Shown one piece after another: positions 40,151-62,753 of a stretch of DNA of 64,000 nucleotides. The position numbers were made by a program, and so were the translations under genes. Origin of the DNA: an uncultured Gammaproteobacteria bacterium. Its GTDB lineage: Bacteria; Patescibacteriota; Microgenomatia; Levybacterales; GWA1-39-11. Where the stretch lies: the NCBI GenBank assembly GCA_964651815.1, contig CAZYWG010000010.1, forward strand, positions 1,377 through 65,376. Reading direction: 5' to 3'. Below the pieces are notes generated by a model that saw only the letters and a list, made by a program, of their open reading frames with translations, was not told the DNA's origin and did not search any database. Position 1 is the stretch's first letter. Each line of letters begins with the position of its first letter.

Positions 40151-40807
40151 TTGTCAGGCAATATTAATTTAATGGCATCCACCAAAAAATCCCACTCCTT
40201 TTCAATATCTGCTGCAATTACTTATGGATGGAATGTGGCTCTAAAAAATCTTTGGTTTTTTGTGGTTTTACTTTTAATGATTCTCGCAACTAATATAGTA
40301 CCAAGTATTCTTGCCTCAATTATTGATAATGGGCGGGCTACACTTTTTGGCTTTTTAGTAAAACTAATTGGATGGATTATACAAATTGCAATCTCAATGG
40401 GTGCAATTGGTATTGCGCTTCGTCTTTACGACAAAAAGAAAGCCGAATATAAAAATCTGCTTGATTATACTCATCTTATCATCCCCTATTTTCTTGCTTC
40501 TATCCTTTATACTTTGATTGTGCTTGTTGGATTAATCCTCTTTATTATCCCGGGCGTTATCTGGTCACTTAAATTCAGGTTTTATTCATACTTTATTGTT
40601 GACCGCGGAATGGGACCAATTGAGGCGCTACGTGCAAGTTCAAAAATTACTCGTGGAAATAAGTGGAATTTGTTTTTCCTAGGGATAATACTTGGACTTA
40701 TAGATATAGTTGGCGCACTTGCATTACTGATAGGTCTTTTTGTAACAATGCCGCTTTCAATGATGGCCGAAGCGTACGTATTCCGCAAACTTTCCGCAAA
40801 GAAATAA
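40151..40807 (+). CDS. Integral membrane protein (DUF975-like)
   Basis: Six hydrophobic helices, 218 aa. Confidence 0.4.
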   Translation: MSGNINLMASTKKSHSFSISAAITYGWNVALKNLWFFVVLLLMILATNIVPSILASIIDNGRATLFGFLVKLIGWIIQIAISMGAIGIALRLYDKKKAEYKNLLDYTHLIIPYFLASILYTLIVLVGLILFIIPGVIWSLKFRFYSYFIVDRGMGPIEALRASSKITRGNKWNLFFLGIILGLIDIVGALALLIGLFVTMPLSMMAEAYVFRKLSAKK

Positions 40808-45557: not shown

Positions 45558-46163
45558 ATGGATTCTAATAACCAAGATTCAAAAAATGACATTGCCGGAA
45601 AAGGGCAAAGCGGCGCGCCTGAAGGGACAATTGAAAATATCTCTCCAAAAGAACCAAGCACTGTTGTTATTCCCCATGTAGACAAATTTGGTTCTGGTTT
45701 GTTTTCTATTTTCCAAAAATCAGCAGGAACCATATTTCTCTTGCTAATTGTTTTAACTGTTCCGGTAACTGTTGCCCTTCTTTCAAAAGAACAAGACGTC
45801 CGACAACGCGCGAGTTTTGAACCTACTGCAGCCCCCACTCCTGCAAAATTTAATATATCGGGAAATGTTTATGAAGACACTAACAATAACGGCGTGCATG
45901 ACAATTGGGAGCTTGGACCGGGAGGCGTAAAACTTGACTTAATTAGCCAAAATATCAAAATAGAAATCTCAACTGATAAATATGGCAATTATTCTTTTGA
46001 AAAATTTGGTGGACTAGTAAGCGGAACATATACTATCACGCTTGTTGCTCCCGCCGGTTTTACGCCAATATCTACAACTAGTGTGAATGTAAATCTTGGA
46101 CCTGACGCCGTAGTAGACTTTGGTCTCAAGAAATCCACAGCTCTTCCAAAACCTACTATTTAA
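45558..46163 (+). CDS. Membrane-anchored protein with SdrD-B/Cna-B-type beta-sandwich domain
   Basis: ISGNVYEDTNNNGVHDNWELGPGGVKLDL...TDKYGNYSFE, the classic SdrD B-like repeat. Confidence 0.5.
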   Translation: MDSNNQDSKNDIAGKGQSGAPEGTIENISPKEPSTVVIPHVDKFGSGLFSIFQKSAGTIFLLLIVLTVPVTVALLSKEQDVRQRASFEPTAAPTPAKFNISGNVYEDTNNNGVHDNWELGPGGVKLDLISQNIKIEISTDKYGNYSFEKFGGLVSGTYTITLVAPAGFTPISTTSVNVNLGPDAVVDFGLKKSTALPKPTI

Positions 46164-46237
46164 AAAGTGAGTAAATCTTTTATTTTAGTTATGCAATTTT
46201 TCTTAAGATTTGCCGCCTGTTGACATATTGAAAGAAA

Positions 46238-47572
46238 TTGCTTATTCTAAGTTCAAGGCATTTTATGCAAAAGTTGCGAGGCGGTATTGAATTTATTTTA
46301 TCTTCATCTAAATGGGCTTCGCTGCTTCTTATTATCATCGCGCTTTTACTTATTTCCTCAATATTTCTTAAAAATGGGAATAAAGCATCCGCACAAGAAG
46401 CCATTGCAAAACCCAATCTTACTGTCACTCAAGTTCAGCTCAGAAGAAACGCGTACCCTAATGCAAATTGTAGCAACGGAACATTAGTCACAGAGGGAAT
46501 GATGCTTAACCCCGGCGAGACTATAGAGGTCTGTATGGTTTATTCAAACAATGGAACTGCTGTTTCATCGTCGAATTTTAAAATTGACAATTACATAAAC
46601 CAAACAACACAACCCGCTGCCGGAACGCGGGGTTATCAATCATATCCTTATCCGCTTGGCTCACTTGGGCCAGGCGGAAGTTATACGTTGGAAATTGGAA
46701 GTATAGTCCCAAGCACTTCCATATGTTCATCTAATTGTCATGCCGGAGTATTTATTGATAGCGACAACACCGTAAGCGAGTCGAATGAAAGTGACAACTT
46801 TGCATATTCAGTTTCCTACAGTCTCCCAGCTGTTACTACTAGCTTCTGCGTTTCATGTGCTGCTCCACCCGATGGATGTAGTTATACAGGTGGCAGTTGC
46901 CAAAGCTGTGGCACTGTGGTCTGTACCACTTCAACTCCTGCGCCAACCTGTACCCCACGTCCTGCTTGTTCTCTACCCGGTGCTAATCCTATATGCGGAC
47001 TTGTAGAACTTACCGGCGGTGGAACATATTGTCCTCTTACCACACTTGCCCCTACAACAGTCGGCGGAAATGGTGCTCAATGTAGTGTTTCTCTAGCGCA
47101 GGGCGCAAGCCAGCATGGCTCATGTCAAAGTGCATATATTTGTCAGATTAACGCGGCATCTGCTTGTACAGATTCTATGCCAGGTTCCTGCACCGGTACT
47201 TGTGTTGTAACAACTACTCCTCCAATTTGCCCTCTTCATAATTCAGGTGACGCAAACTGCGACGGAAAAATTGATATAGAGGACTTTAACGTATGGAAAG
47301 CCGATTTTCTTTCTACTTTCGGAAGTGGTAATAATCCCGGTGATTCACTTGGACTAGCAGATTTCAACAATGACAATAAAGTGGATACTGATGATTTTAA
47401 TATTTGGCGGGATGGATTTATAATAAAAAGCGCTAAAACTGGCTCATGTAGTGCTGTACCTGACGCAAATGGCGTATGTCCGGCAGGATGTGTAAACTAC
47501 GGGAATCCACTTGGATGTGTAACACAACAATATTATGATGAATGCCAAACGCAAGGAGGCTGTCCCAAATGA
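46238..47572 (+). CDS. Secreted Cys-rich protein with two dockerin-like calcium-binding repeats
   Basis: DANCDGKIDIEDFNVWKADF and DFNNDNKVDTDDFNIWRDGF match the dockerin D-x-N-x-D-G-x-x-x-x-x-D pattern. About 40 Cys in a Thr/Pro/Gly-rich region. Confidence 0.5.
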   Translation: MLILSSRHFMQKLRGGIEFILSSSKWASLLLIIIALLLISSIFLKNGNKASAQEAIAKPNLTVTQVQLRRNAYPNANCSNGTLVTEGMMLNPGETIEVCMVYSNNGTAVSSSNFKIDNYINQTTQPAAGTRGYQSYPYPLGSLGPGGSYTLEIGSIVPSTSICSSNCHAGVFIDSDNTVSESNESDNFAYSVSYSLPAVTTSFCVSCAAPPDGCSYTGGSCQSCGTVVCTTSTPAPTCTPRPACSLPGANPICGLVELTGGGTYCPLTTLAPTTVGGNGAQCSVSLAQGASQHGSCQSAYICQINAASACTDSMPGSCTGTCVVTTTPPICPLHNSGDANCDGKIDIEDFNVWKADFLSTFGSGNNPGDSLGLADFNNDNKVDTDDFNIWRDGFIIKSAKTGSCSAVPDANGVCPAGCVNYGNPLGCVTQQYYDECQTQGGCPK

Positions 47573-47598
47573 TAAAACATATTTTTTAAGAGAGAACT

Positions 47599-50118
47599 AT
47601 GGAAAATAATATAAAAGTACATTTACCAAATATAGATACACCAAATGTTTTAAAACAACTTGGGAGATTTAAATTTTTAATAGGTGTTGTGGTTTTGGCA
47701 ATTTTGGCAATCTCAATTCCTTTGACTCTAAATCAAGTTAAAAAATTCCAGGAAAGCCGCTCCCATGCCGCCGCAGGTGAGGTCTCCATAAAGTTAACCC
47801 CATATGGAGAACCATTCCATGTCGGTGACCGTGTTTCATTGGTGGCTACTGTAGAAGATCAAAATCCAAATTATGACATTTCAGCAATTGATATAACAAT
47901 TGATTACGATAAAAATCTATTGGAACCCATGCCTATATGTGCAACTCCTGAATCCGGACCGCCACCTACTACCCCAGTGGAAGGTTGTCCCGCCGGACAA
48001 ATTGTTACACAAGAGGTCTTTGATACTAACGGCTTGGGTTTTACTACTATAGTTAAAAATATAAATAAAGATACCGGCACAGTTCATTATGTAGGTGTTA
48101 ACCCCACTTCACAGATACGAAATGGCGGAGTTGGTAAAGCTGTTACATTTGGAGGTCTCAACTTTAAAGCAAAAGCGCCCGGGAGTGCCACTGTCGGCTT
48201 TTCAAATATTCACATAAACGCAGCGGGAGTTACGGGTGCCCTTCCAATTGATACAACCAACACAAAAATCGGCACATACACAATTAGCACCGGGGCACAA
48301 ACTATCAGAGAATACATGAAAGGTAATAGTGGTAAACATATTGTAACTTTTAAATGCGACTCAAACTGCAATGGGCTCACCGGGCAATCAATTCCGCTCG
48401 CCATAATTCAGGATACAGCTGACATGCTAAAGGGATATTATGACAATGACACCACAAAAACCGTGCGCCTTTTCAACGCACCAGGACTTGACGGTAATGA
48501 ATCCACATTCTCTCTTGCCACAGGGTCTGACGTTGCATCCACTATCATTCTTACCGGTTCTGCCAAATTGTCAGACGGTACATTACATGGAGACGCAAGA
48601 ACTAGCTCCGGCCAAATTCTTGAATGGGAAATGGACTCCTCCACTGGAACTACGTCTCCGGACTTACGAGGAAATTACAGACTTGCCGGAACCTGTGTCA
48701 CTGGCTGTACCGGAGATTTTATACATATTATGAAAATTACAGCCATGGACGGTGAAGTATTTTCAGGAACCGGATATTATATTGCTGATCCGTCAATAAC
48801 TTGGACAGTAACAGGAACCGTAAATCCCGCCACCAAAGTAGTCCTATTTCATATAGTCTATACCGGAACAACTGCAGGTTACTCATCAGAATTCACGGGT
48901 ACTTTAAAGAGCGATGGAAGCATGTCTGGGACTAACACTTCAAGCCAAAACCAAACCGGCACATGGATTTTAACACCTTTAAAAAGCCTAAAAGGTCTTT
49001 ACAATTTAGATGCCACCTGCACAATAAATTGTACAGGTGATTATATTCATACTGTGAATATTACGGATGAAAATATAGACACAGGAACCTTTTCCGGAAA
49101 AGGAATCTATAATGGCGATACTTCAGTTACGTGGGATATTACAGGTACTGAAAATTGGGTCAATAAAACTATGACTTTCCACTTAAATTACACTGGCACA
49201 GGCGCCGGCTATAAAGCAGATGGAACAGGGAAAATCCGTGATGACGGAACTATGGATGGAACTGACACCACTAGCCAAAACCAAACCGCCAATTGGAAAA
49301 TGACACCTATTAAACCTACTCACTGTGGAGGAAATACTGCAAATCCGCTCACTTGCCAGGCCGGCCAAGTTTGTATTCCAGTTCCAGGGCAAAATGCACC
49401 TGCGGGGGATGTTGGCGGAATTTGTGTCGTCTCCGAACAACCACAGTCATGCACAGATGATTCTTCATGTCCAGCAGGATACACCTGCAATGTAGTTGCA
49501 GTTGCGGGAGCTGTACCTGGCACAAATGGCACAGGTGGAGTTAACAGTTCTGAATTAAAACAGTGCGTACTCACAGGTGGAACGTCATTAAGCCTTTCTT
49601 TGAAGCTTCCTGGTGTAGGCAATGGCGCTGCCAGCCTGCAACTTAATGCAAACCCTAAAAGACTAGAAAGGGGTGTAACTATAGTTTTGTCTAATTCACA
49701 AAATCAGCAATTGGAATCTGTCACTGGAAAATTACTCTACGATAGGACAAGTGGCTTATATAAAGGAATTATAAATCTCGGCAAAACTATACAAACGGGC
49801 GCATATCTTATAAAAGTCAGTGTTGACAATAGCTTGCGCAAATCCCTACCTGGAATCCAAAATATTACGGTAGACACAATCAATCAGAGTTCAACCATAG
49901 AATTTCTTCAGGGGGATATAGTTGCAAGTGACGGAACGGCACAGCAAGATAACGTTATAGATGTAGCCGACTATACAACATTCCTTGCGTGCTACCGCAA
50001 AGCAACATCGTGTACAGCGGAAATTAAATCAAGGGCGGATTTCACAGATGATGGTGTAGTTGACGATAAGGACCTGAACATCCTTTATACTGCCTTTAAG
50101 GCAAGACAAGGAGATTAA
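47599..50118 (+). CDS. Large surface protein with an N-terminal cohesin-like segment, two internal about 105-aa tandem repeats, and a C-terminal dockerin-like repeat
   Basis: IDITIDYDKNLLEP is cohesin-like. The repeat units start RGNYRLAGTCVTGCTGDFIH... and KGLYNLDATCTINCTGDYIH.... C-terminal DFTDDGVVDDKDLNILYTAF is dockerin-like. Confidence 0.5.
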   Translation: MENNIKVHLPNIDTPNVLKQLGRFKFLIGVVVLAILAISIPLTLNQVKKFQESRSHAAAGEVSIKLTPYGEPFHVGDRVSLVATVEDQNPNYDISAIDITIDYDKNLLEPMPICATPESGPPPTTPVEGCPAGQIVTQEVFDTNGLGFTTIVKNINKDTGTVHYVGVNPTSQIRNGGVGKAVTFGGLNFKAKAPGSATVGFSNIHINAAGVTGALPIDTTNTKIGTYTISTGAQTIREYMKGNSGKHIVTFKCDSNCNGLTGQSIPLAIIQDTADMLKGYYDNDTTKTVRLFNAPGLDGNESTFSLATGSDVASTIILTGSAKLSDGTLHGDARTSSGQILEWEMDSSTGTTSPDLRGNYRLAGTCVTGCTGDFIHIMKITAMDGEVFSGTGYYIADPSITWTVTGTVNPATKVVLFHIVYTGTTAGYSSEFTGTLKSDGSMSGTNTSSQNQTGTWILTPLKSLKGLYNLDATCTINCTGDYIHTVNITDENIDTGTFSGKGIYNGDTSVTWDITGTENWVNKTMTFHLNYTGTGAGYKADGTGKIRDDGTMDGTDTTSQNQTANWKMTPIKPTHCGGNTANPLTCQAGQVCIPVPGQNAPAGDVGGICVVSEQPQSCTDDSSCPAGYTCNVVAVAGAVPGTNGTGGVNSSELKQCVLTGGTSLSLSLKLPGVGNGAASLQLNANPKRLERGVTIVLSNSQNQQLESVTGKLLYDRTSGLYKGIINLGKTIQTGAYLIKVSVDNSLRKSLPGIQNITVDTINQSSTIEFLQGDIVASDGTAQQDNVIDVADYTTFLACYRKATSCTAEIKSRADFTDDGVVDDKDLNILYTAFKARQGD

Positions 50119-50239
50119 GAGAATTTCGAAATTAGAATTTAGAATTTGGGGTTGAAAATTAAGACTTTACAAAAATTAAAATAAGTACTAACCTATTATT
50201 AGCGTTCTATTCTAGATTCTAAACTATAAATTATTAAAT

Positions 50240-50890
50240 ATGCCTAAAAAAACTACAGTTCTTATAGCAATTCTTGCAGTTGTCACAGTGGTTCTTTTGG
50301 GTCTTGCGCTTATCCAGAGCCAAAAACAAAATACACTTATGACAAGTATCTCGCCTACTCCAAAACCGGTTGAAAAAACAGCCAAAATTTTCTTTAACCC
50401 TGGGACGTGGGATTCAACTTCTGCTACAACTCCAACTGCGTCAGTTGACATCATTATAGACTCTGGAAATAGTGCTCTAGCAGGTGCGCAAGTAGAACTT
50501 CAATATGATCCAAAAGCACTTAGTAATGTAAAAGTTGCGCCAGACGTGAGTACAAACAGTTTTTTTGGTGGCACGGCCAACGTTTTATTTAATGAAAATA
50601 CACAAAGCTCAGGAAAAGTTGAATTTGCTATCGGAATTCCTCCTACTGGGACCGCAAAAAAGGGCTCGGGAAAAATTGCAACATTATCATTTCAAAAATT
50701 ACCGGGCACAACAGAGGCTTCTACTACTATAGTTTTCCTTAACAAAACCTTGGTCTTAATGCTTGATTCTTCACAATCCGTCTTGAAAGATACAACTCCT
50801 CTCATGATAACGCTTGGACAAGCACAACCCAACAAATATCTCCCTCCAACAACCCAGGCACCTTCCAAATCTACCGCCCCTTCTTATTAA
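50240..50890 (+). CDS. Membrane-anchored cohesin-like domain protein (minimal scaffoldin-like)
   Basis: Signal anchor, then SVDIIIDSGNSALAGAQVELQYDPKALSNVKV...GKIATLSFQKL, the type-I cohesin beta-sandwich pattern. Confidence 0.45.
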   Translation: MPKKTTVLIAILAVVTVVLLGLALIQSQKQNTLMTSISPTPKPVEKTAKIFFNPGTWDSTSATTPTASVDIIIDSGNSALAGAQVELQYDPKALSNVKVAPDVSTNSFFGGTANVLFNENTQSSGKVEFAIGIPPTGTAKKGSGKIATLSFQKLPGTTEASTTIVFLNKTLVLMLDSSQSVLKDTTPLMITLGQAQPNKYLPPTTQAPSKSTAPSY

Positions 50891-50980: not shown

Positions 50981-51052
50981 GGGTCGCTAGTTCATCGGTA
51001 GAACGCTTTCCTGATAAGAAAGAGGTGCTAAGTTCGACTCTTAGGCGACCCA
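50981..51052 (+). tRNA. tRNA-Ile (anticodon GAT)
   Basis: Hand-folded: acceptor GGGTCGC/GCGACCC, D-arm GTTC/GAAC with GG, anticodon stem CTTTC/GAAAG with loop CTGATAA, T-arm CTAAG-TTCGACT-CTTAG, discriminator A. No CCA encoded. Confidence 0.85.
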
Positions 51053-51077
51053 CACTGAAAAATGTTTCATTTTTAAG

Positions 51078-52937: not shown

Positions 52938-54452
52938 TTGAAGAATTTATTAACGCACTACAGAAAATCCATCAATCCCCCATATGGCGGAAAAGATTAT
53001 CCCGCTATCGCAGCAACCTTATTGTTTCTTCTAGTTTCATTAGTTGTAATAATAAGTCTTCCCAATAAGCTAAACCAAAACGCTTATCCAAAAAGCGGCT
53101 CTGCACAAACTGTTACAAACAGAATAACATGGCAAGGAAACAACTGGTATATTCACGGCGCAAACGTTCCATGGTACAACTGGGGGTGTGATTTTGGGTG
53201 TAACTCAACAAATGGGAAAAGCGGCGGCGTTTCGAACAACCTAAGCAATCTCACTGTAGCATTCCAACAGGCAAAAAATTCAGGAGTTCATGTTTTAAGG
53301 TGGTGGGTTTTTCCGGGTGATCCGTGGCAAATCACGCGTGACAGCGCGGGCCCAACCGGAATTGATCCTGCCGTATATCCTGATTTTGATGCGGCTTTAA
53401 ATCTTGCAAACCAATATGATATGTACTTTAATTTTATGTTGTTTTCTGCACCCACTGCTATGCCAAGTGCATGGGAGACTGATACAACCCAGAGAGGCAA
53501 ATTAGTTCAAGCGCTCAGCACTCTTTTTGCGCATTATGCCGGCAATCCAAGAATACTGTCTTGGGAAATTTACAACGAACCGGAAAATGACATTTGGAAT
53601 AATAGGATAGCTCAACAACCCGTTGTTGATACCGGTACTGCTATTGCAACTGCAGTCCACTCAAGTTCTCCAGGGACGCTTGTCACGGTAGGAAGTTTAT
53701 TTGCTGATGGAATGAAAATGTGGCTAAATGCTGGACTTGACTACTATTCTCCTCACTGGTATGACTACATGAGCGGTGGCGATTATTGCATGATTTGTCA
53801 CAATTATAGTTATTATTCTGCTTGGGGAGTAACAAAACCAATTGTAGTTGGTGAATTTTATTCGGGAACAAGCGCAACGACACCGACATCTTCAAACAGG
53901 TATGATTATTGGTATAACAACGGCTATGCTGGCGCGTGGGCTTGGTCATTATTCCCAAGTCATACTAGCGACGGTTTGCAAATTGATTTTACTGCTGCAA
54001 CAAATTTTGCTTCTCAACATGCAGATATTGGGCCAATTGCCGGATTTTCCTCAACCCCAACGCCTACTCAGGCCGTATCCTTGACACCTACCCCCGCAAT
54101 CTCACAGGCACCATCTTCTACTCCCACACCATCGCCAAGCCTTACTCCTGTACCGACAGTAGGATCAAATGACGCAACCGCTCCAACTGTGACTATCACC
54201 TCGCCTTTAGCCGGCTCAACTGTAGCTGTTAGGAAGAATGTAACAATTCAAGCAACTGCCTCTGACAACGTTGGAGTTTCGAGGGTAGAATTCTATATCA
54301 ATGGAACGCTGACCTGTACCGACATTTCGAGCCCCTACTCTTGTTCTTGGAAAGTTCCTGGCTCAAAGAACAGAACTTACAAATTGTCTGCCAAGGCGTC
54401 GGATGCTGCCGGTAATAATTCAACAAGCTCAATTAGTGTTACTGCAAGATAA
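52938..54452 (+). CDS. Glycoside hydrolase family 5-like (cellulase/mannanase clan GH-A) with a C-terminal Ig-like domain. Signal-anchored with an N-terminal YRKSINPPY motif.
   Basis: WEIYNEPEN (GH5 acid/base NEP motif), then a Thr/Pro linker and a 95-aa Ig-like domain shared with four neighbours. Confidence 0.65.
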   Translation: MKNLLTHYRKSINPPYGGKDYPAIAATLLFLLVSLVVIISLPNKLNQNAYPKSGSAQTVTNRITWQGNNWYIHGANVPWYNWGCDFGCNSTNGKSGGVSNNLSNLTVAFQQAKNSGVHVLRWWVFPGDPWQITRDSAGPTGIDPAVYPDFDAALNLANQYDMYFNFMLFSAPTAMPSAWETDTTQRGKLVQALSTLFAHYAGNPRILSWEIYNEPENDIWNNRIAQQPVVDTGTAIATAVHSSSPGTLVTVGSLFADGMKMWLNAGLDYYSPHWYDYMSGGDYCMICHNYSYYSAWGVTKPIVVGEFYSGTSATTPTSSNRYDYWYNNGYAGAWAWSLFPSHTSDGLQIDFTAATNFASQHADIGPIAGFSSTPTPTQAVSLTPTPAISQAPSSTPTPSPSLTPVPTVGSNDATAPTVTITSPLAGSTVAVRKNVTIQATASDNVGVSRVEFYINGTLTCTDISSPYSCSWKVPGSKNRTYKLSAKASDAAGNNSTSSISVTAR

Positions 54453-54500
54453 CATATTCAATAGTCTAGAAACTAGCTACTGGCAAAATACGGCAGGGAA

Positions 54501-56747
54501 ATGAAATTGAAACAACTTATACAAACATATAGAAAAGGGATTAATCCACCATATTCTAAAAAAGATTTCCCAATTGTTGCAGGTACTCTACTCGTTTTGC
54601 TTATTGTTACTCTTGTTGTAGTTATTCTTCCTAATCAATATAAGAGTAAACAAACAGAAAACACTCATGCACAGGAAGTAAAAAAGATTGAGGTACAAGC
54701 TGCACCAGACGAAATTTTAGTAAAATTTAAACCAGGGGCAACAGAACGGATTAAAAATTCTGTCAGGCGGGCATTTGGACTAACCAAAAAAGATGAACTT
54801 ACGCAAATTGGTGTTGAAGTATTGAAAACAACTCCGGTGAACCGGGATCACATCGCCGAAGCGTTAAATAAACGACCTGAAGTTCAGTTTGCGCAACTCA
54901 ATTTTATTACTAAACCTGCAATTGTACCAAATGACACTAATTATTCTACACAATGGCACTTACCTGATATTTCTGCAGATAGAGCTTGGGATGTTGCAAA
55001 AGCTACTGGAATCCTAATAGGAATGTGTGATACAGGAGTAAATCAAGTTCCGGATCTAGCCCCGGTCTTGCGGACAGATCTTGGTTGGAACGCGGTTGAT
55101 GGATCTAGCAACTTCAGTGACCCCATAGGGCACGGAACCGGTACGGCGGGTGCGGCTGCGGCAGCAACAAACAATGCTCTTGGGGTAGCTGGCGTTGCTT
55201 GGGGAGCACAAATTATACCTGTTAGAGTCAGCAATCTTTCGGATGGTTCCGCGTATACAAGTGATATTGCAAAATGTATTAATTATTCGGCAGATCATGG
55301 AGCAAAAGCTATCAATGCTTCCTACGGTGTAGCCGGCGACTCAACTATCAATTCAGCCGGACTTTATGCACAGAGCAAAGGAGCATTGCTTACTATTTCT
55401 GCCGGAAATAGTGGTTTGGATCCAGGATGGTCTAACTTGCCAGGTATTATTGCAGTTTCCGCTATGGACACTCTTAACAATCCTGCTACCTTTACAAATT
55501 TCGGAAATTTTATTGATGTGGCAGCCCCAGGTGCAAGTATTTATACTACAAAAAATGACGGAAACTATTGGTATACTGCAGGTACGTCTTTTAGCGCGCC
55601 GATTGCAGCCGGAGTGATTGGCCTTATTTTCGGCGCAAAACCCTCATTAACTGCAGCTCAGGCTCAGGATATTTTGTTTAAAAATTCGGATGATCTTGGG
55701 ATCTCTGGATGGGATAAATATTTTGGATGGGGACGAGTTAATGCGCTCCGCACTGTAGATGCAGCCCTGGGTCTTGCACCGGACACTACGGCACCCATTG
55801 TTTCCATTACCAATCCTATAACAAATTCTACTGTTTCCGGCCAATCTGTATCAATTAGTACACAAGCTTCAGATAATTTTGGAGTAACTAAAGAAGAACT
55901 TTATATAGACAACGCTCTAATTGGAACAACGACCTGGTTCTTCTCCGGTGGAACTGCATCGTTCACTTGGGACTCAAGAACCGTTCCAAATGGATCACAT
56001 ACTATCATCGCCAAAGCTTATGATGGGGCAGATAATGCTGGAACTTCAACATCTGTAATAATCAATGTTGTGAATTCTTCCGATATCACTGATCCCACAA
56101 TTTCAATCACAAGTCCGGCAAACAACACCACTGTTTCCGGAACTATAAATGTTGCAGCAATAGCATCAGATAACATTGGTGTAGTAAAAGTAACTTTTGA
56201 TAAGTTTGGTGCACCGTTACAAACATTTACTAACCCTCCTTATTCTTTTTCCTGGGACACAAATGCCGCATTGGCGAGCCAATGTCCAACCACATGTATA
56301 ACAAATATTCAGGCGACAGCATATGATGCCGCTGGAAATTATGCATCTGCAAACGTAGGTATAACTTATAACAATAGTGGTGTAACTACCTCTCCTACAG
56401 CAACACCAACAATTGGTTTATCTCCCACAAATACTCCCATTCCATCCCCTACACCTTCCTTAACAGATCATACTTCGCCAACTGTAACTATCTCCTCTCC
56501 TCTCGCGGGGTCAACAGTAGCGGTTCGTTCAAATGTAAATATCCAAGCAACAGCTTCTGACAATATTGGAGTTGCCCGAACAGAGTTCTATGTCAATGGA
56601 ACTCTCACTTGTAGCGATACGAGCTCACCCTACTCTTGTTCTTGGAAAGTGCCGGGAGCTAAGAATAAAAGCTATTCGATTAGTGCAAAAACGTATGATG
56701 CTGCTGGAAATAATTCAACAAGCTCAATTAGTGTAACGGCAAAATGA
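54501..56747 (+). CDS. Subtilisin-like serine protease (peptidase S8) with I9 propeptide and three C-terminal Ig-like domains. N-terminal YRKGINPPY motif.
   Basis: Catalytic triad contexts GMCDTGVN (Asp), HGTGTAG (His), GTSFSAPIAAG (Ser). Confidence 0.8.
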   Translation: MKLKQLIQTYRKGINPPYSKKDFPIVAGTLLVLLIVTLVVVILPNQYKSKQTENTHAQEVKKIEVQAAPDEILVKFKPGATERIKNSVRRAFGLTKKDELTQIGVEVLKTTPVNRDHIAEALNKRPEVQFAQLNFITKPAIVPNDTNYSTQWHLPDISADRAWDVAKATGILIGMCDTGVNQVPDLAPVLRTDLGWNAVDGSSNFSDPIGHGTGTAGAAAAATNNALGVAGVAWGAQIIPVRVSNLSDGSAYTSDIAKCINYSADHGAKAINASYGVAGDSTINSAGLYAQSKGALLTISAGNSGLDPGWSNLPGIIAVSAMDTLNNPATFTNFGNFIDVAAPGASIYTTKNDGNYWYTAGTSFSAPIAAGVIGLIFGAKPSLTAAQAQDILFKNSDDLGISGWDKYFGWGRVNALRTVDAALGLAPDTTAPIVSITNPITNSTVSGQSVSISTQASDNFGVTKEELYIDNALIGTTTWFFSGGTASFTWDSRTVPNGSHTIIAKAYDGADNAGTSTSVIINVVNSSDITDPTISITSPANNTTVSGTINVAAIASDNIGVVKVTFDKFGAPLQTFTNPPYSFSWDTNAALASQCPTTCITNIQATAYDAAGNYASANVGITYNNSGVTTSPTATPTIGLSPTNTPIPSPTPSLTDHTSPTVTISSPLAGSTVAVRSNVNIQATASDNIGVARTEFYVNGTLTCSDTSSPYSCSWKVPGAKNKSYSISAKTYDAAGNNSTSSISVTAK

Positions 56748-58207
56748 TTAGAGAGATGAAAAAGTTATTAAAAGATTATAGAAAGGCAATTAATCCTCCG
56801 TACTTAAAAACGGATGTTCCGATTATAAGTGCTACCCTGCTCATTCTCCTGCTCGCAGTCATCCTGATCCTAAATTTACCGGATGTATTCAATTCAAAAA
56901 AAATTACTGAATCTCATGCGGCAGTTGATTGCGGAACATCACTTCAGACAAAAATTGATGGGGCTCTATCGGGTTCCACAGTGGACCTGACCGGTTGCAC
57001 ATATAGCGGGACTAATATTCAGATTTCAAAACCCTTAACAATAATCGGGGGAAGTTTTAACTCAACTTCAACTGATCGCTGGAGCAATGCTTTTGTAATT
57101 AATTCAGATAACGTAACTGTTCAGAAATGGACATTTGCTGGAGGTGGTCAAATTATTGCGGATCTTGGACACTCAAATGTAAATATTCTCAACAACAGTT
57201 TTTCCAATCAATTAGGCTCCTCTGTAGCGCTCTGGGGAGCATCAAACAACGTAATAATTGACGGAAATAAAATTGTTCAATCTGTAACAAATCAAGTTTC
57301 ACCTATAATAGCAAGAGCATCGGAAGATTGCTCTGTCTATCTTAAAAACTTAATAATAAGAAACAACTATATGGATCAGGGACCGGCCGGGGTAGGTTGG
57401 TTTGGTATAGAACTAAAATGTAATGATGGTGTCCTAATTGAAAATAATACGCTCCATGGTGGAGAAACCTTAGTCTCTCTCCCGGATACTAATAATGTTC
57501 AGGTTAAAAATAATACATTTGACATGACCGGAGATGCTTATTGGGGGGTGGAAATAGCCCATGCAAACAACGTGACAGTCGCTGGAAATACATTTTTCGG
57601 AGATGGGCCTTCTGGCACAGATCATGCGGTATCAGAAAACAGCGGCAGTCAAAACTCCTATATATCCGGTAATAATGTGCATGATATTAGAACTCTTGTT
57701 GATGTAGGTGGGGATTATATCTCAATAACTGATAATTGCCTGGTAAATGTGTTGAGGGTAACGGAATATGATAGTTCGGGAACTCATGTAATATTGTCAA
57801 ACAACGGTCCGTGTCCTTCTCCTTCTGTTACACCAACGGGTGTAATTACTACTCCATCAACGACTCCGACACCCGCACCAACTGTGACTGCATTCCCAAC
57901 TCCCGCACCAACCGTGACCTCAAACGACACAACATCCCCTAGCGTTAGGATAGATTCCCCGCTTAACGGATCAATAATAAAAGCAAAATCTACAACGTCA
58001 ATTACCGCGTCGGCTTCAGATAATTTGGGAGTGACAAGAGTTGAATTTCTAGTCAACGGTACGCTCATCTGTTCGGATACCACTTCGCCTTACACGTGCT
58101 CATGGAGAGTACCAGGTTCAAGAAATAGAACATATACTATTTCTGCCAAAGCATATGACGCCGCCGGAAATAATTCAACTAGTTCTATTAGTGTCACGGC
58201 AAAGTGA
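56744..58207 (+). CDS. Right-handed parallel beta-helix (pectate-lyase-like) protein with a C-terminal Ig-like domain. N-terminal YRKAINPPY motif. ATGA overlap with the S8 gene.
   Basis: Repeated NN(x)F/I...G..N beta-helix rungs (NVNILNNSF, NNVIIDGNKIV, IIRNNYM, IENNTLHGG, VKNNTFDMTGD, VAGNTFFGDG). Confidence 0.5.
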   Translation: MIREMKKLLKDYRKAINPPYLKTDVPIISATLLILLLAVILILNLPDVFNSKKITESHAAVDCGTSLQTKIDGALSGSTVDLTGCTYSGTNIQISKPLTIIGGSFNSTSTDRWSNAFVINSDNVTVQKWTFAGGGQIIADLGHSNVNILNNSFSNQLGSSVALWGASNNVIIDGNKIVQSVTNQVSPIIARASEDCSVYLKNLIIRNNYMDQGPAGVGWFGIELKCNDGVLIENNTLHGGETLVSLPDTNNVQVKNNTFDMTGDAYWGVEIAHANNVTVAGNTFFGDGPSGTDHAVSENSGSQNSYISGNNVHDIRTLVDVGGDYISITDNCLVNVLRVTEYDSSGTHVILSNNGPCPSPSVTPTGVITTPSTTPTPAPTVTAFPTPAPTVTSNDTTSPSVRIDSPLNGSIIKAKSTTSITASASDNLGVTRVEFLVNGTLICSDTTSPYTCSWRVPGSRNRTYTISAKAYDAAGNNSTSSISVTAK

Positions 58208-58300
58208 GGTTAACTCTTGACAAAATTACAGTATTAATACAACAATTAACTTGTTAAGCATTTGAGAAAAACTTATTTTCGACTAATTAAATAAAAAACC

Positions 58301-59620
58301 GTGGAAGAACAAAAACTTAAATTACCAAAAAAAGATTCCTCAGTTCAATTTCACGCTTTTGCTTATGTTATAGTTGGAGTTTTTATTGGTCTCATAGTAG
58401 GTTTCTTTAGTGCGTTTTTGTATCTTAAAAACATCGCGATCTCTCCAAACGTTGCAATAACTAAGACTGAAGAAAGTGCTCCTGCAGAACTTCCACCACA
58501 AGCTGCACTTCACGTACCGGTGTGCATTCCAAGAGGACCACAAGCTGTGAAATGTCATGCCCAAGTGGTAATCAATAAAAGTGGACAACCTGATTTGACA
58601 AGCGTACCTCAAGGATATGGCCCCGTACAATTCCAGACAGCATATAGCCTTTTGGGGAAAAGTTCTTCCGGAAGAATTGTTGCAATAATTGATGCATATG
58701 ATAACCCAAATATTAAGCCTGATCTAGACACATATAGCGGTGCGTTTGGGCTTCCTGTTCTCCCAACATGCCAAACAACAATTAAAGATTCCGCAACTCC
58801 TTGTTTTCAAAAAATTGATCAAAGAGGGGGAACATCCTACCCAGCTGCCGATTCTTCATGGGCTCTTGAAATTGCACTGGATACTGAAGTAGTACACGCT
58901 GCCTGCCCCGACTGTAAAATTCTTCTTGTGGAGGCAGACAGTAATACTTATGACAGTTTGTTGGCGGCAGAGGATAAGGCTGTTGCTCTTGGAGCTTCTG
59001 TTGTCTCAAACTCCTACGGTTCAGGCGAATTCAGCTCAGAAACATCATTTGACAGCCATTTCAACGTTGCGGGGGTAGCTTTCACCTTCTCCTCAGGAGA
59101 CGCGGGTTACGGGAGTACATATCCCGCAGCCTCACGTTATGTCACAGCGGTTGGCGGGACTACCCTTCTTTTAAACTCTAATAATACGTATAAAAATGAA
59201 ACTGCCTGGAGCGGCGCAGGAAGCGGTTGTTCAAATTTTGAAATTAAGCCAACATGGCAAAGTGATAAAGGATGCCCTATGAGGACAATTGTTGATGTCT
59301 CAGCTGATGCTGACCCTTCAAGTGCTGCTGCAGTTTATGATACGGTTCCTTACGGCGGGACGGGTCAAACAGGTTGGTTCCAGGTTGGCGGGACAAGCCT
59401 TGCTTCACCGCTCGTCGCTGCTGTATTCGCACTCAAAGGAGTGCCACCAGGCACACAAGCAAACTCTCTCCCATATCTTTCCGCTACCACCGGATTAAAT
59501 GACGTGACTAGAGGTTCAAACGGTGGGTGTCCTCAAAAAAACAAATATTTATGTAGTGCAGTCGTGGGCTATGATGGACCAACGGGTCTCGGGACTCCAA
59601 AGGGAATAGGTGCATTTTAA
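58301..59620 (+). CDS. Peptidase S8/S53 (sedolisin-like) family serine peptidase, membrane-anchored
   Basis: SGDAGYGSTYPAASRYVTAVGGTTL and GGTSLASPLVAAVFALKG (Ser nucleophile), typical of S53/S8. Confidence 0.55.
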   Translation: MEEQKLKLPKKDSSVQFHAFAYVIVGVFIGLIVGFFSAFLYLKNIAISPNVAITKTEESAPAELPPQAALHVPVCIPRGPQAVKCHAQVVINKSGQPDLTSVPQGYGPVQFQTAYSLLGKSSSGRIVAIIDAYDNPNIKPDLDTYSGAFGLPVLPTCQTTIKDSATPCFQKIDQRGGTSYPAADSSWALEIALDTEVVHAACPDCKILLVEADSNTYDSLLAAEDKAVALGASVVSNSYGSGEFSSETSFDSHFNVAGVAFTFSSGDAGYGSTYPAASRYVTAVGGTTLLLNSNNTYKNETAWSGAGSGCSNFEIKPTWQSDKGCPMRTIVDVSADADPSSAAAVYDTVPYGGTGQTGWFQVGGTSLASPLVAAVFALKGVPPGTQANSLPYLSATTGLNDVTRGSNGGCPQKNKYLCSAVVGYDGPTGLGTPKGIGAF

Positions 59621-59643
59621 TCTCTTCTCATAGAAGAAAATAT

Positions 59644-60012
59644 TTAGATAAGTTCTTCTAGCTCCTCAGGTGCATCATGGTCTTCAAAAACTCCTTGCTC
59701 ATCCCAAATAAGCGCTTGAAGTAGATATTCTTTCAGAAGACGAAGACGTTTTATTTCTTTTAGCAATTTTGTTGCTTTTTGAGGGTGGTTGCGGACTAAT
59801 TGATAGAAAAGCGATTCGAGTTGCTGTAATCTATTTGAAATTGCCTGATGAGTTGCAATAATTTTTCCCTGGCGGCTCCTCTTTCTGTATGTTTTAAATT
59901 CACGTAACCGCTGCCACTCGCCGGCCTGAATTTCGCGATTCAAATCTGAATCTACAACATCATCGCGCTTTTCTTGAGTACTGGACTTTTCTTCTTTATT
60001 TTTTTTCTCCAT
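59644..60012 (-). CDS. Hypothetical charged protein (122 aa)
   Basis: ORF only. Confidence 0.3.
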   Translation of the reverse strand: MEKKNKEEKSSTQEKRDDVVDSDLNREIQAGEWQRLREFKTYRKRSRQGKIIATHQAISNRLQQLESLFYQLVRNHPQKATKLLKEIKRLRLLKEYLLQALIWDEQGVFEDHDAPEELEELI

Positions 60013-60015
60013 GAA

Positions 60016-60222
60016 TTATCTTACTACTTCTGCAAGTTTTTCCGGAAGGTCTATTCCTGTACGCACAAGCCCAGAACCCACAGCGCCCCCCATTTTACGT
60101 GCGATGTTGTAATAAATCCACTTATCTTTCCTGCGAATTGCCGCAAGATAATCAAAAATATCCCAGTTTTGTGTATTGTATTCTCTTTCCATATTATTGT
60201 TTAATTTTTTGGCTCCCGCCAT
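60016..60222 (-). CDS. Hypothetical small protein. Start is ambiguous (Met at 60222 or 60192), and it overlaps a second small minus-strand ORF at 60201..60356 encoding a 51-aa membrane peptide.
   Basis: Two overlapping small frames; neither verified. Confidence 0.25.
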   Translation of the reverse strand: MAGAKKLNNNMEREYNTQNWDIFDYLAAIRRKDKWIYYNIARKMGGAVGSGLVRTGIDLPEKLAEVVR

Positions 60223-60427
60223 CGTCCAATAAAAAATATCGCAAGCCCAACTGCTACCATCGGATAGTCAACGCTTATAACACCCAAAAGCGTGAGTGCG
60301 CCTCCTAGTCCTTTTTCAAAAATTGATTCAGCTTTTCTGTAGGTTTCTTTTGCCATTTGATGTAATTATATAACTTGAACAAAAATAATCTTCACGAATA
60401 AATAACAATATTGTGATAAAGTAGATT

Positions 60428-60682
60428 TTAGGCGTGCGCTGGCATTACTTGGGCTCGTGTATTTCTTCCACCAGCTTCCTCTGGATTAAGCTTGCGATGT
60501 AAAAGGTACCTCATAACTCCAAGCCCTGCGCCAACAATTGGCAAAAACTGGGCTGCCAACCATCCATACAACACAAAACCAATAGCAATCGATACATCGA
60601 GAGGACCCTTTCCCTCAATTTCGCGAACCGTGTTTTTTACTCGACCCCAAAAGCTATCAGTATGCGAACCTCTCTCTTGCAT
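60428..60682 (-). CDS. Small membrane protein (84 aa)
   Basis: One or two hydrophobic helices; ORF only. Confidence 0.3.
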   Translation of the reverse strand: MQERGSHTDSFWGRVKNTVREIEGKGPLDVSIAIGFVLYGWLAAQFLPIVGAGLGVMRYLLHRKLNPEEAGGRNTRAQVMPAHA

Positions 60683-60779
60683 TAAAGAATATTATACTAC
60701 CTATAGGATACTTTTAGCAAATCGCGGGCATCCTAAATGTATTGCTTGTTAATATTTCTTTGACTATACTATATACATT

Positions 60780-62753
60780 ATGGATTATAGAATTCCTCCG
60801 CCTGGACAAAGCTATAATTCATTCCACGAAAAAGAAACTAAAAAAATAGACCGCGAAATTAATAAAAGCTTTATTTTCCTGACTATCTTCTCTATTTCCA
60901 TCTTTGTGATATCCACAATCTTAATCAAACAGAGCCAGGATTTAAGACAAAGAGCTGAAACCCCTTCTATTAACCAAGACGCGGCCCCTGACGAGATTCT
61001 TCTTAAATTTAAGCCGGGGGCAAAACAAAATATTAAGAATAAAATACTCTCGCTACATGCGCTCTCTGTCAAAGAAGAAATTAAACAAATTGATGTAAAA
61101 GTAGTAAAAGTTGCGCCGACTTCAAGAGATTACGTTGTTGAAGCGCTGTCTCATAACCCGGCAATAGACTTTGCAGAAACAAACAAAATTCTTAAAACTC
61201 AACTTGTTCCAAATGACCCTTATTTCAGCCAGGAATGGCACCTTGCTGATATACAAACACCCGCTGCATGGGATAGCACAAAAGCCACGGGTGTTCTAAT
61301 TGCGATGTGTGATACTGGAGTTAATCAAGTTGCTGACCTGACGCCGGCTTTACGGACAGATCTTGGCTGGAATGCAGTTGACGGAACGAGTGACTGGTCT
61401 GATCCAATTGGACATGGGACAAGCACGGCGGGAGTAATAGCTGCCGCAACAGATAATGGAATAGGTGTTGCAGGAGTCGCCTGGGGAGCACAAATTATTC
61501 CAGTTAGAGTAAGTAATTTATCCGGGGGAAATGCATACATAAGCGATATTATAAAATGCATAAATTATGGCGCAGATAATGGAGCACGCGTCATTAATGT
61601 GTCCTATGATGTTGCAGGAGATAGCGGCGTTGATGCGGCCGGACAATACGCCCAAAGCCGCGGCGGACTACTTTTTGCTGCCGCAGGCAATAGTGCATCA
61701 GACCCTGGTTATCAAAATTACCCTGGTATTATTGCCGTATCGGCAACTGCCGGAACAAATCTTACAGGGTTCTCTAGCTTTGGAAATTTTATTGATCTTT
61801 CAGCGCCTGGAACAAATATATATTCAACAAAATTTGACGGTACATTTTGGCCTGTCAGTGGAACTTCTGTTGCGTCGCCTGTTGCAGGTGGTGTTGCGGC
61901 ATTAGTATTTGGAATAAAACCGCAATTTACCGCTCTGCAAGTGCAAAATATTCTCTTCCAAAACTCTGACGACCTTGGAGCGCCGGGATACGATGTGCAA
62001 TTTGGCTGGGGAAAAATTAATGCGGCAAAAGCAGTTGCAGCGGCTTTAGGAACTACACCAACTGACACCACCGCACCTGCTACAAGTATAAGCTCACCTA
62101 CCAGCGGAAGTACAATAAGTGGACTAGTCCCTATCAACGCTGACGCAACAGATAATGTTGGGGTTGCAAGAGTTGAGCTCTATTTTGAAAACCCCGGCGG
62201 AACTCCATACGCAGTTGACACCACGTCCCCGTATTCATTTATTTGGGATACAACTCAGGTATCGAATGGCCAGCATCTCATATATACAAAGGCATATGAC
62301 ACTGCCGGTAACACTACTACGTCAAACGGCATTTCATTGACCGTAAATAACACTCTGCCCACACCAACGCCTACTATAACACCAACTTTTGCTCCAACCT
62401 CAACTTTAGCCCCAACTCAAACTCCATTTCCAACGGCAACAATTAAACCAACACCCACTACCACTTCACAAGATAAAACTGCGCCGGTTGTTACTATAAT
62501 TTTTCCACTGGCAGGTTCAACTGTTGGGGTTAGAACAAATATTAATATTACGGCAACAGCAATAGATAACGTGGGAGTAACAAAAGTAGAATTTTATGTA
62601 AACGGAACATTAAATTGTTCTGATTCCGCATCTCCTTACACATGTGGCTGGAAAGTACCCGCATCAAAGAATAAAACCTATACTCTTGCGGCAAAAGCAT
62701 ATGACGCAGCAGGAAATTTCTCAGGGGGAAGCATTAGCGTGACCGCAAAATAA
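60780..62753 (+). CDS. Subtilisin-like serine protease (peptidase S8), paralog of 54501..56747, with two C-terminal Ig-like domains
   Basis: AMCDTGVN / HGTSTAG / GTSVASPVAGG triad. Same I9 propeptide pattern (ILLKFKPGAKQNIKN). Confidence 0.8.
   Translation: MDYRIPPPGQSYNSFHEKETKKIDREINKSFIFLTIFSISIFVISTILIKQSQDLRQRAETPSINQDAAPDEILLKFKPGAKQNIKNKILSLHALSVKEEIKQIDVKVVKVAPTSRDYVVEALSHNPAIDFAETNKILKTQLVPNDPYFSQEWHLADIQTPAAWDSTKATGVLIAMCDTGVNQVADLTPALRTDLGWNAVDGTSDWSDPIGHGTSTAGVIAAATDNGIGVAGVAWGAQIIPVRVSNLSGGNAYISDIIKCINYGADNGARVINVSYDVAGDSGVDAAGQYAQSRGGLLFAAAGNSASDPGYQNYPGIIAVSATAGTNLTGFSSFGNFIDLSAPGTNIYSTKFDGTFWPVSGTSVASPVAGGVAALVFGIKPQFTALQVQNILFQNSDDLGAPGYDVQFGWGKINAAKAVAAALGTTPTDTTAPATSISSPTSGSTISGLVPINADATDNVGVARVELYFENPGGTPYAVDTTSPYSFIWDTTQVSNGQHLIYTKAYDTAGNTTTSNGISLTVNNTLPTPTPTITPTFAPTSTLAPTQTPFPTATIKPTPTTTSQDKTAPVVTIIFPLAGSTVGVRTNINITATAIDNVGVTKVEFYVNGTLNCSDSASPYTCGWKVPASKNKTYTLAAKAYDAAGNFSGGSISVTAK

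Follow-up and report, generated by a model that had tools for sequence, protein, structure and literature searches.

In Clostridium thermocellum, type I dockerins (DocI) are carried by the enzymes, type I cohesins (CohI) and an X module–type II dockerin dyad (X-DocII) by CipA, and type II cohesins (CohII) by an anchoring protein. In anaerobic methanotrophic archaea (ANME) and their sulfate-reducing bacterial (SRB) partners, cohesin and dockerin proteins with CARDB, fibronectin and Ig-like domains have been proposed to be cell–cell adhesins (PMC10553843). In the Saccharibacterium Southlakia epibionticum, SEML1_0315 is an essential envelope protein with a dockerin domain, for which host-glycan targeting or adhesion has been suggested (PMC10633639). 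Beyond a few cultured Saccharibacteria, how the Candidate Phyla Radiation (CPR)/Patescibacteria attach to hosts or surfaces is little understood. Here, we analysed a stretch of 64,000 nucleotides of contig CAZYWG010000010.1, hereafter the window, and describe a cluster of four genes at positions 45558-50890 that is predicted to encode a two-tier cohesin–dockerin system of the cell surface, with a membrane anchor, an adaptor and a cargo protein. Based on sequence comparisons and structure models, we give this reading a probability of about 0.6.

Cohesin and dockerin modules of the cluster

The cluster comprises four open reading frames (ORFs) with one shared direction (+), which encode proteins of 201, 444/435, 839 and 216 amino acid residues (aa) and lie 74, 26 and 121 nt apart. 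According to hydropathy, each of these proteins has a single hydrophobic segment, located at the N-terminus. The genes and their modules, with the basis of each assignment, are as follows.

45558..46163, + strand: SdrD_B protein of 201 aa, first gene of the cluster (Pfam, leader motif, hydropathy)
46238..47572, + strand: CARDB/Cys-rich protein of 444 aa (435 aa from the ATG at 46265), the proposed cargo
47246..47401, + strand: type-I-like dockerin of the 444-aa protein, aa 337-388 (Dockerin_1 on the fragment; profile A3)
47599..50118, + strand: putative adaptor, a scaffoldin-like protein of 839 aa (ORF, module profiles)
47761..48303, + strand: cohB, the N-terminal cohesin of the 839-aa protein, aa 55-235 (Pfam on the fragment, orthologues, profile A4, hhalign)
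48664..49308, + strand: two tandem repeats of ~107 aa in the 839-aa protein, aa 356-460 and 464-570 (BLASTP)
49564..49908, + strand: X module of the 839-aa protein, an Ig-like beta-sandwich, aa ~656-770 (AlphaFold2 (AF2) model; profile alignment to 2b59_B)
49909..50115, + strand: type-II-like dockerin of the 839-aa protein, aa 771-839 (profile A2; AF2 model)
50240..50890, + strand: putative anchor protein with the cohesin cohA, 216 aa (Pfam Cohesin; AF2; Foldseek; alignment A1)

The 216-aa protein matches the Pfam family Cohesin (PF00963) with 30.2 bits, above the cut-off of 24.1. It can be described as an N-terminal MPKKTT, a transmembrane (TM) helix (aa ~7-29), a short linker, the cohesin cohA (aa ~45-194) and a Pro/Thr-rich tail. 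The AF2 model, which was made from an alignment of 15 sequences and has a predicted local distance difference test score (pLDDT) of 84, shows an N-terminal helix followed by a beta-sandwich, in keeping with the nine-stranded jelly-roll fold of cohesins. When this model was compared with the Protein Data Bank (PDB) by Foldseek, all of the 50 top matches were cohesins (best E=2.8e-9; TM-score to the target up to 0.77). Non-cellulosomal cohesins of Clostridium perfringens and Archaeoglobus fulgidus are among the PDB matches of cohA and cohB. A first-pass annotation, made from the sequence alone, had named the lack of a cohesin fold in the 216-aa protein as a result that would refute it; the fold is borne out by this model and its matches. 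The protein has no match to S-layer homology (SLH) repeats or to the sortase signal LPXTG in Pfam or NCBIfam, and anchoring of the SLH or sortase type is not indicated.

Assignment of cohA to type II was considered and rejected, and cohA is left untyped: its sequence matches that lean to types II/III are non-significant, and its structural matches lean to type I. The segment MPKKTT (50240-50257 in the window) is invariant in all homologues of cohA, including those of the loci L024, L025 and L027 described below, even where the overall identity is 32-40%. This invariance could stem from a contact in the cytoplasm or from a signal for translation.

Taken alone, the C-terminal dockerin of the 839-aa protein scores weakly, with 14.3-14.4 bits for Pfam Dockerin_1 (PF00404, cut-off 22.9) and 23 bits for NCBIfam dockerin_GC (cut-off 29). 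Its relatives reach 26.2 and 26.6 bits, and Dockerin_1 is matched by 10 of the 15 members of the family (best E=1.3e-6). Profile A2, which covers the C-terminal 190 residues of the 839-aa family, has as its best match in the PDB 2b59_B, the X-module–type II dockerin of C. thermocellum CipA (E=4.5e-8), followed by the X module–dockerin (X-Doc) dyads 3kcp_A (1.7e-7), 4wi0_B (4.7e-6) and 4u3s_B (8.8e-6). The alignment to 2b59_B spans the X module and the dockerin without a break, and the homology therefore extends over both modules of the dyad. The dockerin that the first-pass annotation placed at this C-terminus is thus confirmed at the level of the family and is more than a dockerin, since it forms a dyad with an X module. 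The AF2 model of the X-Doc, built on an alignment of matches from the search of representatives described below, has a pLDDT of 93 and a predicted TM-score (pTM) of 0.86, with strands at fragment residues 13-119 and three helices in the dockerin. This model indicates a rigid dyad, in which the X module would be packed against the dockerin.

Loop 1 of this dockerin has a 7-residue insertion (GDIVASDGTAQQDNVIDVADY), with GD...N-x-I-D-x-x-D-Y retained; the consensus of the family in loop 1 is canonical (GDLDQDNxLDxxDY), as is loop 2 of the 839-aa protein itself (DFTDDGVVDDKD). A pair of Cys residues, C798 and C805, is conserved between helices 1 and 2. The C-terminus carries a conserved R-x-G-D (window 50104-50115), which occurs in the family in the variants RQGD, RNGD and REGD.

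A search with the 839-aa query against 1.84 billion representatives gave 1489 matches at E<=1e-3, of which 828 remain at E<=1e-10, and nearly all lie on the X-Doc region. The X-Doc module is the mark of a large family that has no annotation and comprises, at E<=1e-10, 828 clusters at 50% identity. Among the 148 X-Doc matches listed, 133 have a complete X-Doc, and in 127 of these 133 the dyad is the exact C-terminus, usually with R-x-G-D. An N-terminal cohesin is found in the same chain in 72 of the 148, and two cohesins in 4. No matches were obtained when the X-Doc fragment was the query of a word-indexed search for homologues.

The 839-aa protein as a whole is composed of a leader, cohB, an unassigned region, the two ~107-aa repeats, a Cys-rich linker, the X module and the dockerin. 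The score of cohB for Pfam Cohesin is low on its own (14.4 bits in the whole protein and 20.0 as a fragment), while its orthologues reach 40.7, 27.8 and 24.3 bits. The family profile A4 matches cohesins of the PDB with E=1.5e-5, and hhalign relates cohB to the 216-aa family with a probability of 96.7%. Both cohesins of the first-pass annotation, in the 216-aa protein and at the N-terminus of the 839-aa protein, are thereby upheld. The two tandem repeats, which are 50% identical (BLASTP E=3e-37 between the copies) and match no Pfam family, make up the adaptor's variable payload region. The same repeat domain, probably an extracellular binding domain that has yet to be characterised, recurs in the unrelated architectures P0018 (with HYR/DUF4082), P0031, P0041 and P0162.

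The 444-aa protein consists of a signal or anchor segment (aa 26-44, followed by ...KASAQEA), a CARDB domain (aa 91-188; Pfam 33.9 bits, cut-off 22.7), a Cys-rich region, a dockerin and a Cys-rich tail, with 28 Cys overall. A dockerin was defined as two tandem segments of ~22 residues, each made of a 12-residue Ca loop D-x-[DN]-x-[DN]-G-x-x-[DN]-x-x-D and a helix. In the 444-aa protein the repeats are DANCDGKIDIEDF and DFNNDNKVDTDDF, both with canonical Ca loops, and the loop and helix units within 47246..47401 are DANCDGKIDIEDFNVWKADF and DFNNDNKVDTDDFNIWRDGF. The isolated module matches Dockerin_1 with 26.1 bits (E=9.9e-6), and the whole protein with 21.0 bits, which agrees with the duplicated repeats noticed in the first pass. 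Dockerin_1 is matched by 11 of the 14 members of this 444-type family (best E=2.7e-9), and the best PDB matches of the family profile A3 are type I dockerins (3ul4_B, E=5e-5).

The 201-aa protein has an SdrD_B domain at aa 102-173 (Pfam 44.4 bits, cut-off 29.7). Its N-terminal part is long and has a hydrophobic segment at aa 57-75, followed by KEQDVRQRAS, a form of the lineage-specific leader described below. Neither a cohesin nor a dockerin was found in this protein; the domain proposed in the first pass is therefore present, and participation of the protein in a scaffold is unsupported. A regular expression and four family hidden Markov models (HMMs) found no further cohesins or dockerins in the 64-kb window beyond the 444-, 839- and 216-aa proteins.

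Gene order in related genomes and the proposed assembly

A scan for relatives of the 216-aa protein, with one genome per species, gave 18 loci in metagenome-assembled genomes (MAGs), and their ORFs were annotated with HMMs made from the modules of the window. These MAGs are labelled Patescibacteria, Levybacteria, Parcubacteria or, evidently by mislabelling, 'uncultured Gammaproteobacteria' with the same gene content. Together with the window and three loci that were seeded by the X-Doc (L024, L025 and L027), the sample amounts to 22 loci. The gene directly upstream of cohA ends in an X-Doc in all 19 cohA-seeded loci (the window and the 18), and in 22 of 22 when the X-Doc-seeded loci are included. 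Each of the three X-Doc-seeded look-ups (3/3) shows a protein with cohesin and X-Doc, then a gene for MPKKTT, TM helix and cohA, with type-I-like dockerin genes before.

The X-Doc protein has cohB, as an N-terminus of leader and cohesin, in 14 loci (in L013 the call was made via Pfam), and a 444-type dockerin gene lies just upstream in exactly those 14. In L010, L016, L021 and L022 the X-Doc protein has no cohesin and a 444-type dockerin gene is absent. Since these four loci retain only the X-Doc and cohA, this pair is the minimal conserved unit. The perfect association of cohB with the type-I-like dockerin is given no formal probability, because the genomes are related. Gene order and co-occurrence in the 22 loci lend strong support to the idea, raised in the first pass, that an anchored cohesin docks dockerin-bearing proteins. 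However, since the X-Doc dyad is of the type II kind, the predicted arrangement is a hierarchy of two tiers and not one scaffold that docks all.

In the proposed assembly, the 216-aa protein, a type II membrane protein, would hold cohA ~15-20 residues off the membrane. The C-terminal X-Doc of the 839-aa adaptor would plug into cohA, as the X-DocII of CipA does into SdbA/OlpB, and cohB, exposed on the adaptor, would receive the type-I-like dockerin of the 444-aa protein. We infer this pairing of dockerins with cohesins from gene order and co-occurrence. Assuming that the leader is cleaved, the leader-bearing proteins would be released and held at the cell through their dockerins alone. The recognised cargo modules across the loci are CARDB, SdrD_B, VWA, fn3, PKD, TIG, CAP and Tectonin, beside many orphan regions. 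The payloads would be binding modules, namely the adaptor repeats, the Cys-rich modules and CARDB in the window, and VWA, SdrD_B, fn3, TIG, PKD, CAP and Tectonin in the relatives. The most likely function is surface display of exchangeable adhesins or lectins, with which the cell would plausibly attach to a host cell or to a substrate.

Variations on this layout are found in the relatives. The protein encoded at 4624-5988 of L025 has the leader, a cohB-type cohesin and a type-I-like dockerin in place of the X-Doc, which indicates extra adaptor tiers in some relatives. In many relatives a second protein with a TM anchor and a single cohesin, a paralogue, is encoded 5-9 kb upstream. The positions are as follows.

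L004, 4594-5271
L011, 1671-2411
L012, 1022-1714
L013, 3200-3868
L015, 2801-3520
L016, 3880-4557
L018, 163-876
L020, 964-1659

In the window, the syntenic slot of this paralogue, which is flanked by the CBS-methyltransferase and DHFR genes, at 40151-40807, holds a multi-pass membrane protein instead. Ten of the MAG contigs (L007, L011-L013, L015-L017 and L019-L021) are submitted as 'uncultured Gammaproteobacteria bacterium' and have the Levybacteria-like operon, leader motif and flanks; the submitter taxonomy of these ten contigs is probably wrong.

Upstream of the cluster, on the minus strand, the window has genes for dCTP deaminase, thymidylate kinase, ThyA and serine hydroxymethyltransferase, and in addition one for an acyltransferase; the flanking genes of nucleotide metabolism are also present in L027 and L004. 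Downstream are tRNA-Ile (50981-51053), a membrane PAS protein and then, at 52938-62753, five secreted proteins: a 504-aa protein without a catalytic Pfam match, three S8 subtilases and a beta-helix protein. Four of the five end in 1-3 Big_7 Ig-like modules. Here, Big_7 may be a second, dockerin-independent module for surface retention or binding.

Leader motif and split dockerins

A common leader was found in 63 secreted or surface ORFs. It is composed of a charged n-region, a hydrophobic stretch of ~20 aa that contains (L/I)P(V/I/L)T(I/L), and xxQQQD(I/V/L)RQRA(S/A). Three of the carriers are in the window, and the 60 others are in L004-L022.

45558-46163: leader at aa 57-90
47599-50118: leader at aa 26-58
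60780-62753: leader at aa ~40-62

The leader is present on the X-Doc proteins, on most cargo proteins and on many other secreted proteins of the loci. The cohA proteins never have the QQDIRQRA leader, which fits cohA as a permanent anchor. The leader has no match in Pfam or NCBIfam, and the motif was not found in a literature search; judged from its sequence and distribution, it may be a lineage-specific signal for sorting or processing.

The five loci L005-L009, which are nearest to the window, have an X-Doc whose dockerin is divided over two polypeptides. The X module and the first F-hand repeat close one protein, which ends right after the conserved Cys pair, and the second repeat (...FDFNDDGxIDExDLNILYxGFxxRxGD) closes another protein that has its own leader. 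The carrier of the second repeat is the cohB protein in L005 and L006, a TIG protein in L009 and a mini-protein of 109 aa in L008 (6449-6778), which consists of the leader, a PT linker and the half dockerin, and nothing else. The gene pairs are located as follows.

L005: 6327-7928 and 9122-9892
L006: 6292-7866 and 9187-9957
L007: 267-1175 and 1178-1675
L008: 5379-6443 and 6449-6778
L009: 8058-9179 and 9181-9858

The two halves co-occur in all five of these loci and never in loci with a fused dockerin. Half dockerins are present in at least 13 representative clusters, and in P0054 about 150 residues are inserted between the halves. This distribution suggests a dockerin that is reconstituted from two polypeptides. 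More tentatively, and at well under even odds, the TM-anchored cohesin and the X-Doc adaptor could together form a lineage-wide modular 'adhesome', the attachment apparatus of Levybacteria and relatives, in which a split dockerin would anchor its two proteins only upon heterodimerisation. If true, the split-dockerin assembly would be a three-protein junction, which would be new among cohesin–dockerin systems. Natural split dockerins could also serve as engineering parts.

Alternative readings and comparison with known systems

Several observations weigh against the two-tier assembly. The cohesin and the dockerin of the window's 839-aa protein are both below the Pfam cut-offs, and the first Ca loop of this dockerin is interrupted. 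Foldseek with the X-Doc model returned generic Ig-like matches only and no X-Doc structure. The structure of cohA resembles type I cohesins no less than type II cohesins, so that the labels of types I and II do not carry over cleanly. The X-Doc proteins P0130 and P0146, which have no cohesin, have no adjoining cohA gene either. The evidence for the pairings is the synteny and co-occurrence seen in genomes that are related and phylogenetically non-independent. If the leader of the adaptor stayed uncleaved and acted as an anchor, both ends of the adaptor would be at the membrane, and the geometry would be altered. Finally, no domain is recognised in many of the cargo proteins, and an enzymatic role is therefore possible for these.

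The reading that survives best beside the two-tier assembly, which we consider unlikely, is that the modules do not pair with one another. They would then be stand-alone beta-sandwich and Ca-binding parts of adhesins for glycans, host proteins or the cell wall, and the operon would be a cluster of secreted proteins. To our knowledge, many non-cellulosomal modules of cohesin or dockerin type are without a demonstrated partner; the profile of the type-I-like dockerin also reaches EF-hand proteins at E~1e-3, and the sub-threshold Pfam scores of the 839-aa protein are in line with this view. However, the adjacency of the X-Doc and cohA genes is invariant in the 22 loci, the presence and absence of DocI and cohB are coupled, and the whole X-Doc dyad is homologous to a dyad with structurally proven binding to a cohesin. 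Moreover, mini-proteins made of a leader, a linker and a half dockerin, as in L008, make sense only as parts of an assembly.

A little less probable still is a head-to-tail polymer, in which the X-Doc of one protein with cohesin and X-Doc binds cohB of the next, giving a fibre rooted on cohA with the type-I-like dockerin proteins as caps or decorations. The combination of N-terminal cohesin and X-Doc in one chain, found in 72 of the 148 proteins listed (with two cohesins in 4), would allow this; cross-recognition is conceivable given the homology of cohA and cohB, and the protein of L025 with cohB and a DocI-like module could lengthen such chains. The co-occurrence of cohB with the type-I-like dockerin (14 against 4 loci) points instead to DocI as the partner of cohB, the two dockerin families are clearly different in sequence, and cohA is retained in loci that have the X-Doc and lack cohB.

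The secreted S8 subtilases, the beta-helix protein and the 504-aa protein of the window carry no dockerin, and the expectation of the first-pass annotation that neighbouring hydrolases would be further dockerin proteins fails throughout the 64-kb window. A catalytic Pfam domain is absent from the dockerin-bearing proteins of 23 loci. Neither dockerin-bearing enzymes for plant cell walls, in the 64 kb of this genome and the loci, nor a scaffoldin with several cohesins and a carbohydrate-binding module (CBM) was found; a single cohesin and no Pfam match to a CBM were seen in the 839-aa protein. A genuine minimal cellulosome, tethering enzymes that degrade polysaccharides or proteins, is very improbable: secreted S8 proteases, the beta-helix protein and the 504-aa protein do lie 2-12 kb downstream and several domain-less cargo proteins could be novel enzymes, but those hydrolases have Big_7 and neither dockerin nor cohesin, the dockerin proteins of the loci are without catalytic Pfam domains and the adaptor has a single cohesin and no CBM. 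Since the hydrolases of the window have Big_7 and not dockerins, and no dockerin-bearing protein of the loci has a catalytic Pfam domain, the system is cellulosome-like in assembly only, which is the part of the earlier cellulosome-like description that stands. A role in adhesin or lectin display is the best inference.

The cluster offers a concrete, small and widely conserved set of genes, with two predicted Ca-dependent pairs that are cheap to test. The closest described system is that of C. thermocellum CipA with SdbA/OlpB (PDB 2b59, 3kcp, 4fl4). Shared with it are a cohesin scaffold that ends in an Ig-like X module and a dockerin, a separate single-cohesin protein, here a small predicted cell anchor, and a second, type-I-like pair that would load the cargo. 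The anchors of C. thermocellum have SLH repeats or a sortase signal, while the one described here has an N-terminal TM helix. The present system further differs in having one scaffold cohesin (rarely two), no CBM and an enzyme-free cargo, in a cohA that structurally resembles types I and II equally well, and in its host, a Patescibacterium with a very small genome. Its X-Doc dockerins have a Cys pair and a C-terminal R-x-G-D; classical dockerins have neither this terminal motif nor a Cys pair between the helices. Anchoring by an X-module–dockerin and a cohesin would thus be extended from cellulolytic Firmicutes to a membrane-anchored, enzyme-free setting.

With the glycosidase and toxin complexes of C. 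perfringens (2ozn, 2jh2, 2w1n, 2vo8) and the cohesin of A. fulgidus (2xdh), the system has in common the use of these modules outside cellulose degradation. In those systems, however, enzymes are linked together or the partners are unassigned, and they have no operon of anchor, adaptor and cargo and no X-Doc with a TM-anchored cohesin. The proposal for ANME and SRB, made for other lineages, derives from domain inventories and expression data and includes no two-tier operon, X-Doc or split dockerin (PMC10553843). SEML1_0315, which is likened here by its description, is a single protein from a transposon sequencing (Tn-seq) screen, for which no cohesin partner or operon was reported (PMC10633639). 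Both the ANME–SRB adhesins and SEML1_0315 are consistent with adhesive display as its precedents. A literature search on cohesins and dockerins in CPR found no description of such an operon. The parts are known, and what is new is their arrangement, with a TM-anchored cohesin, an X-Doc adaptor with a single cohesin, adhesin-type cargo and split dockerins in an operon of Patescibacteria.

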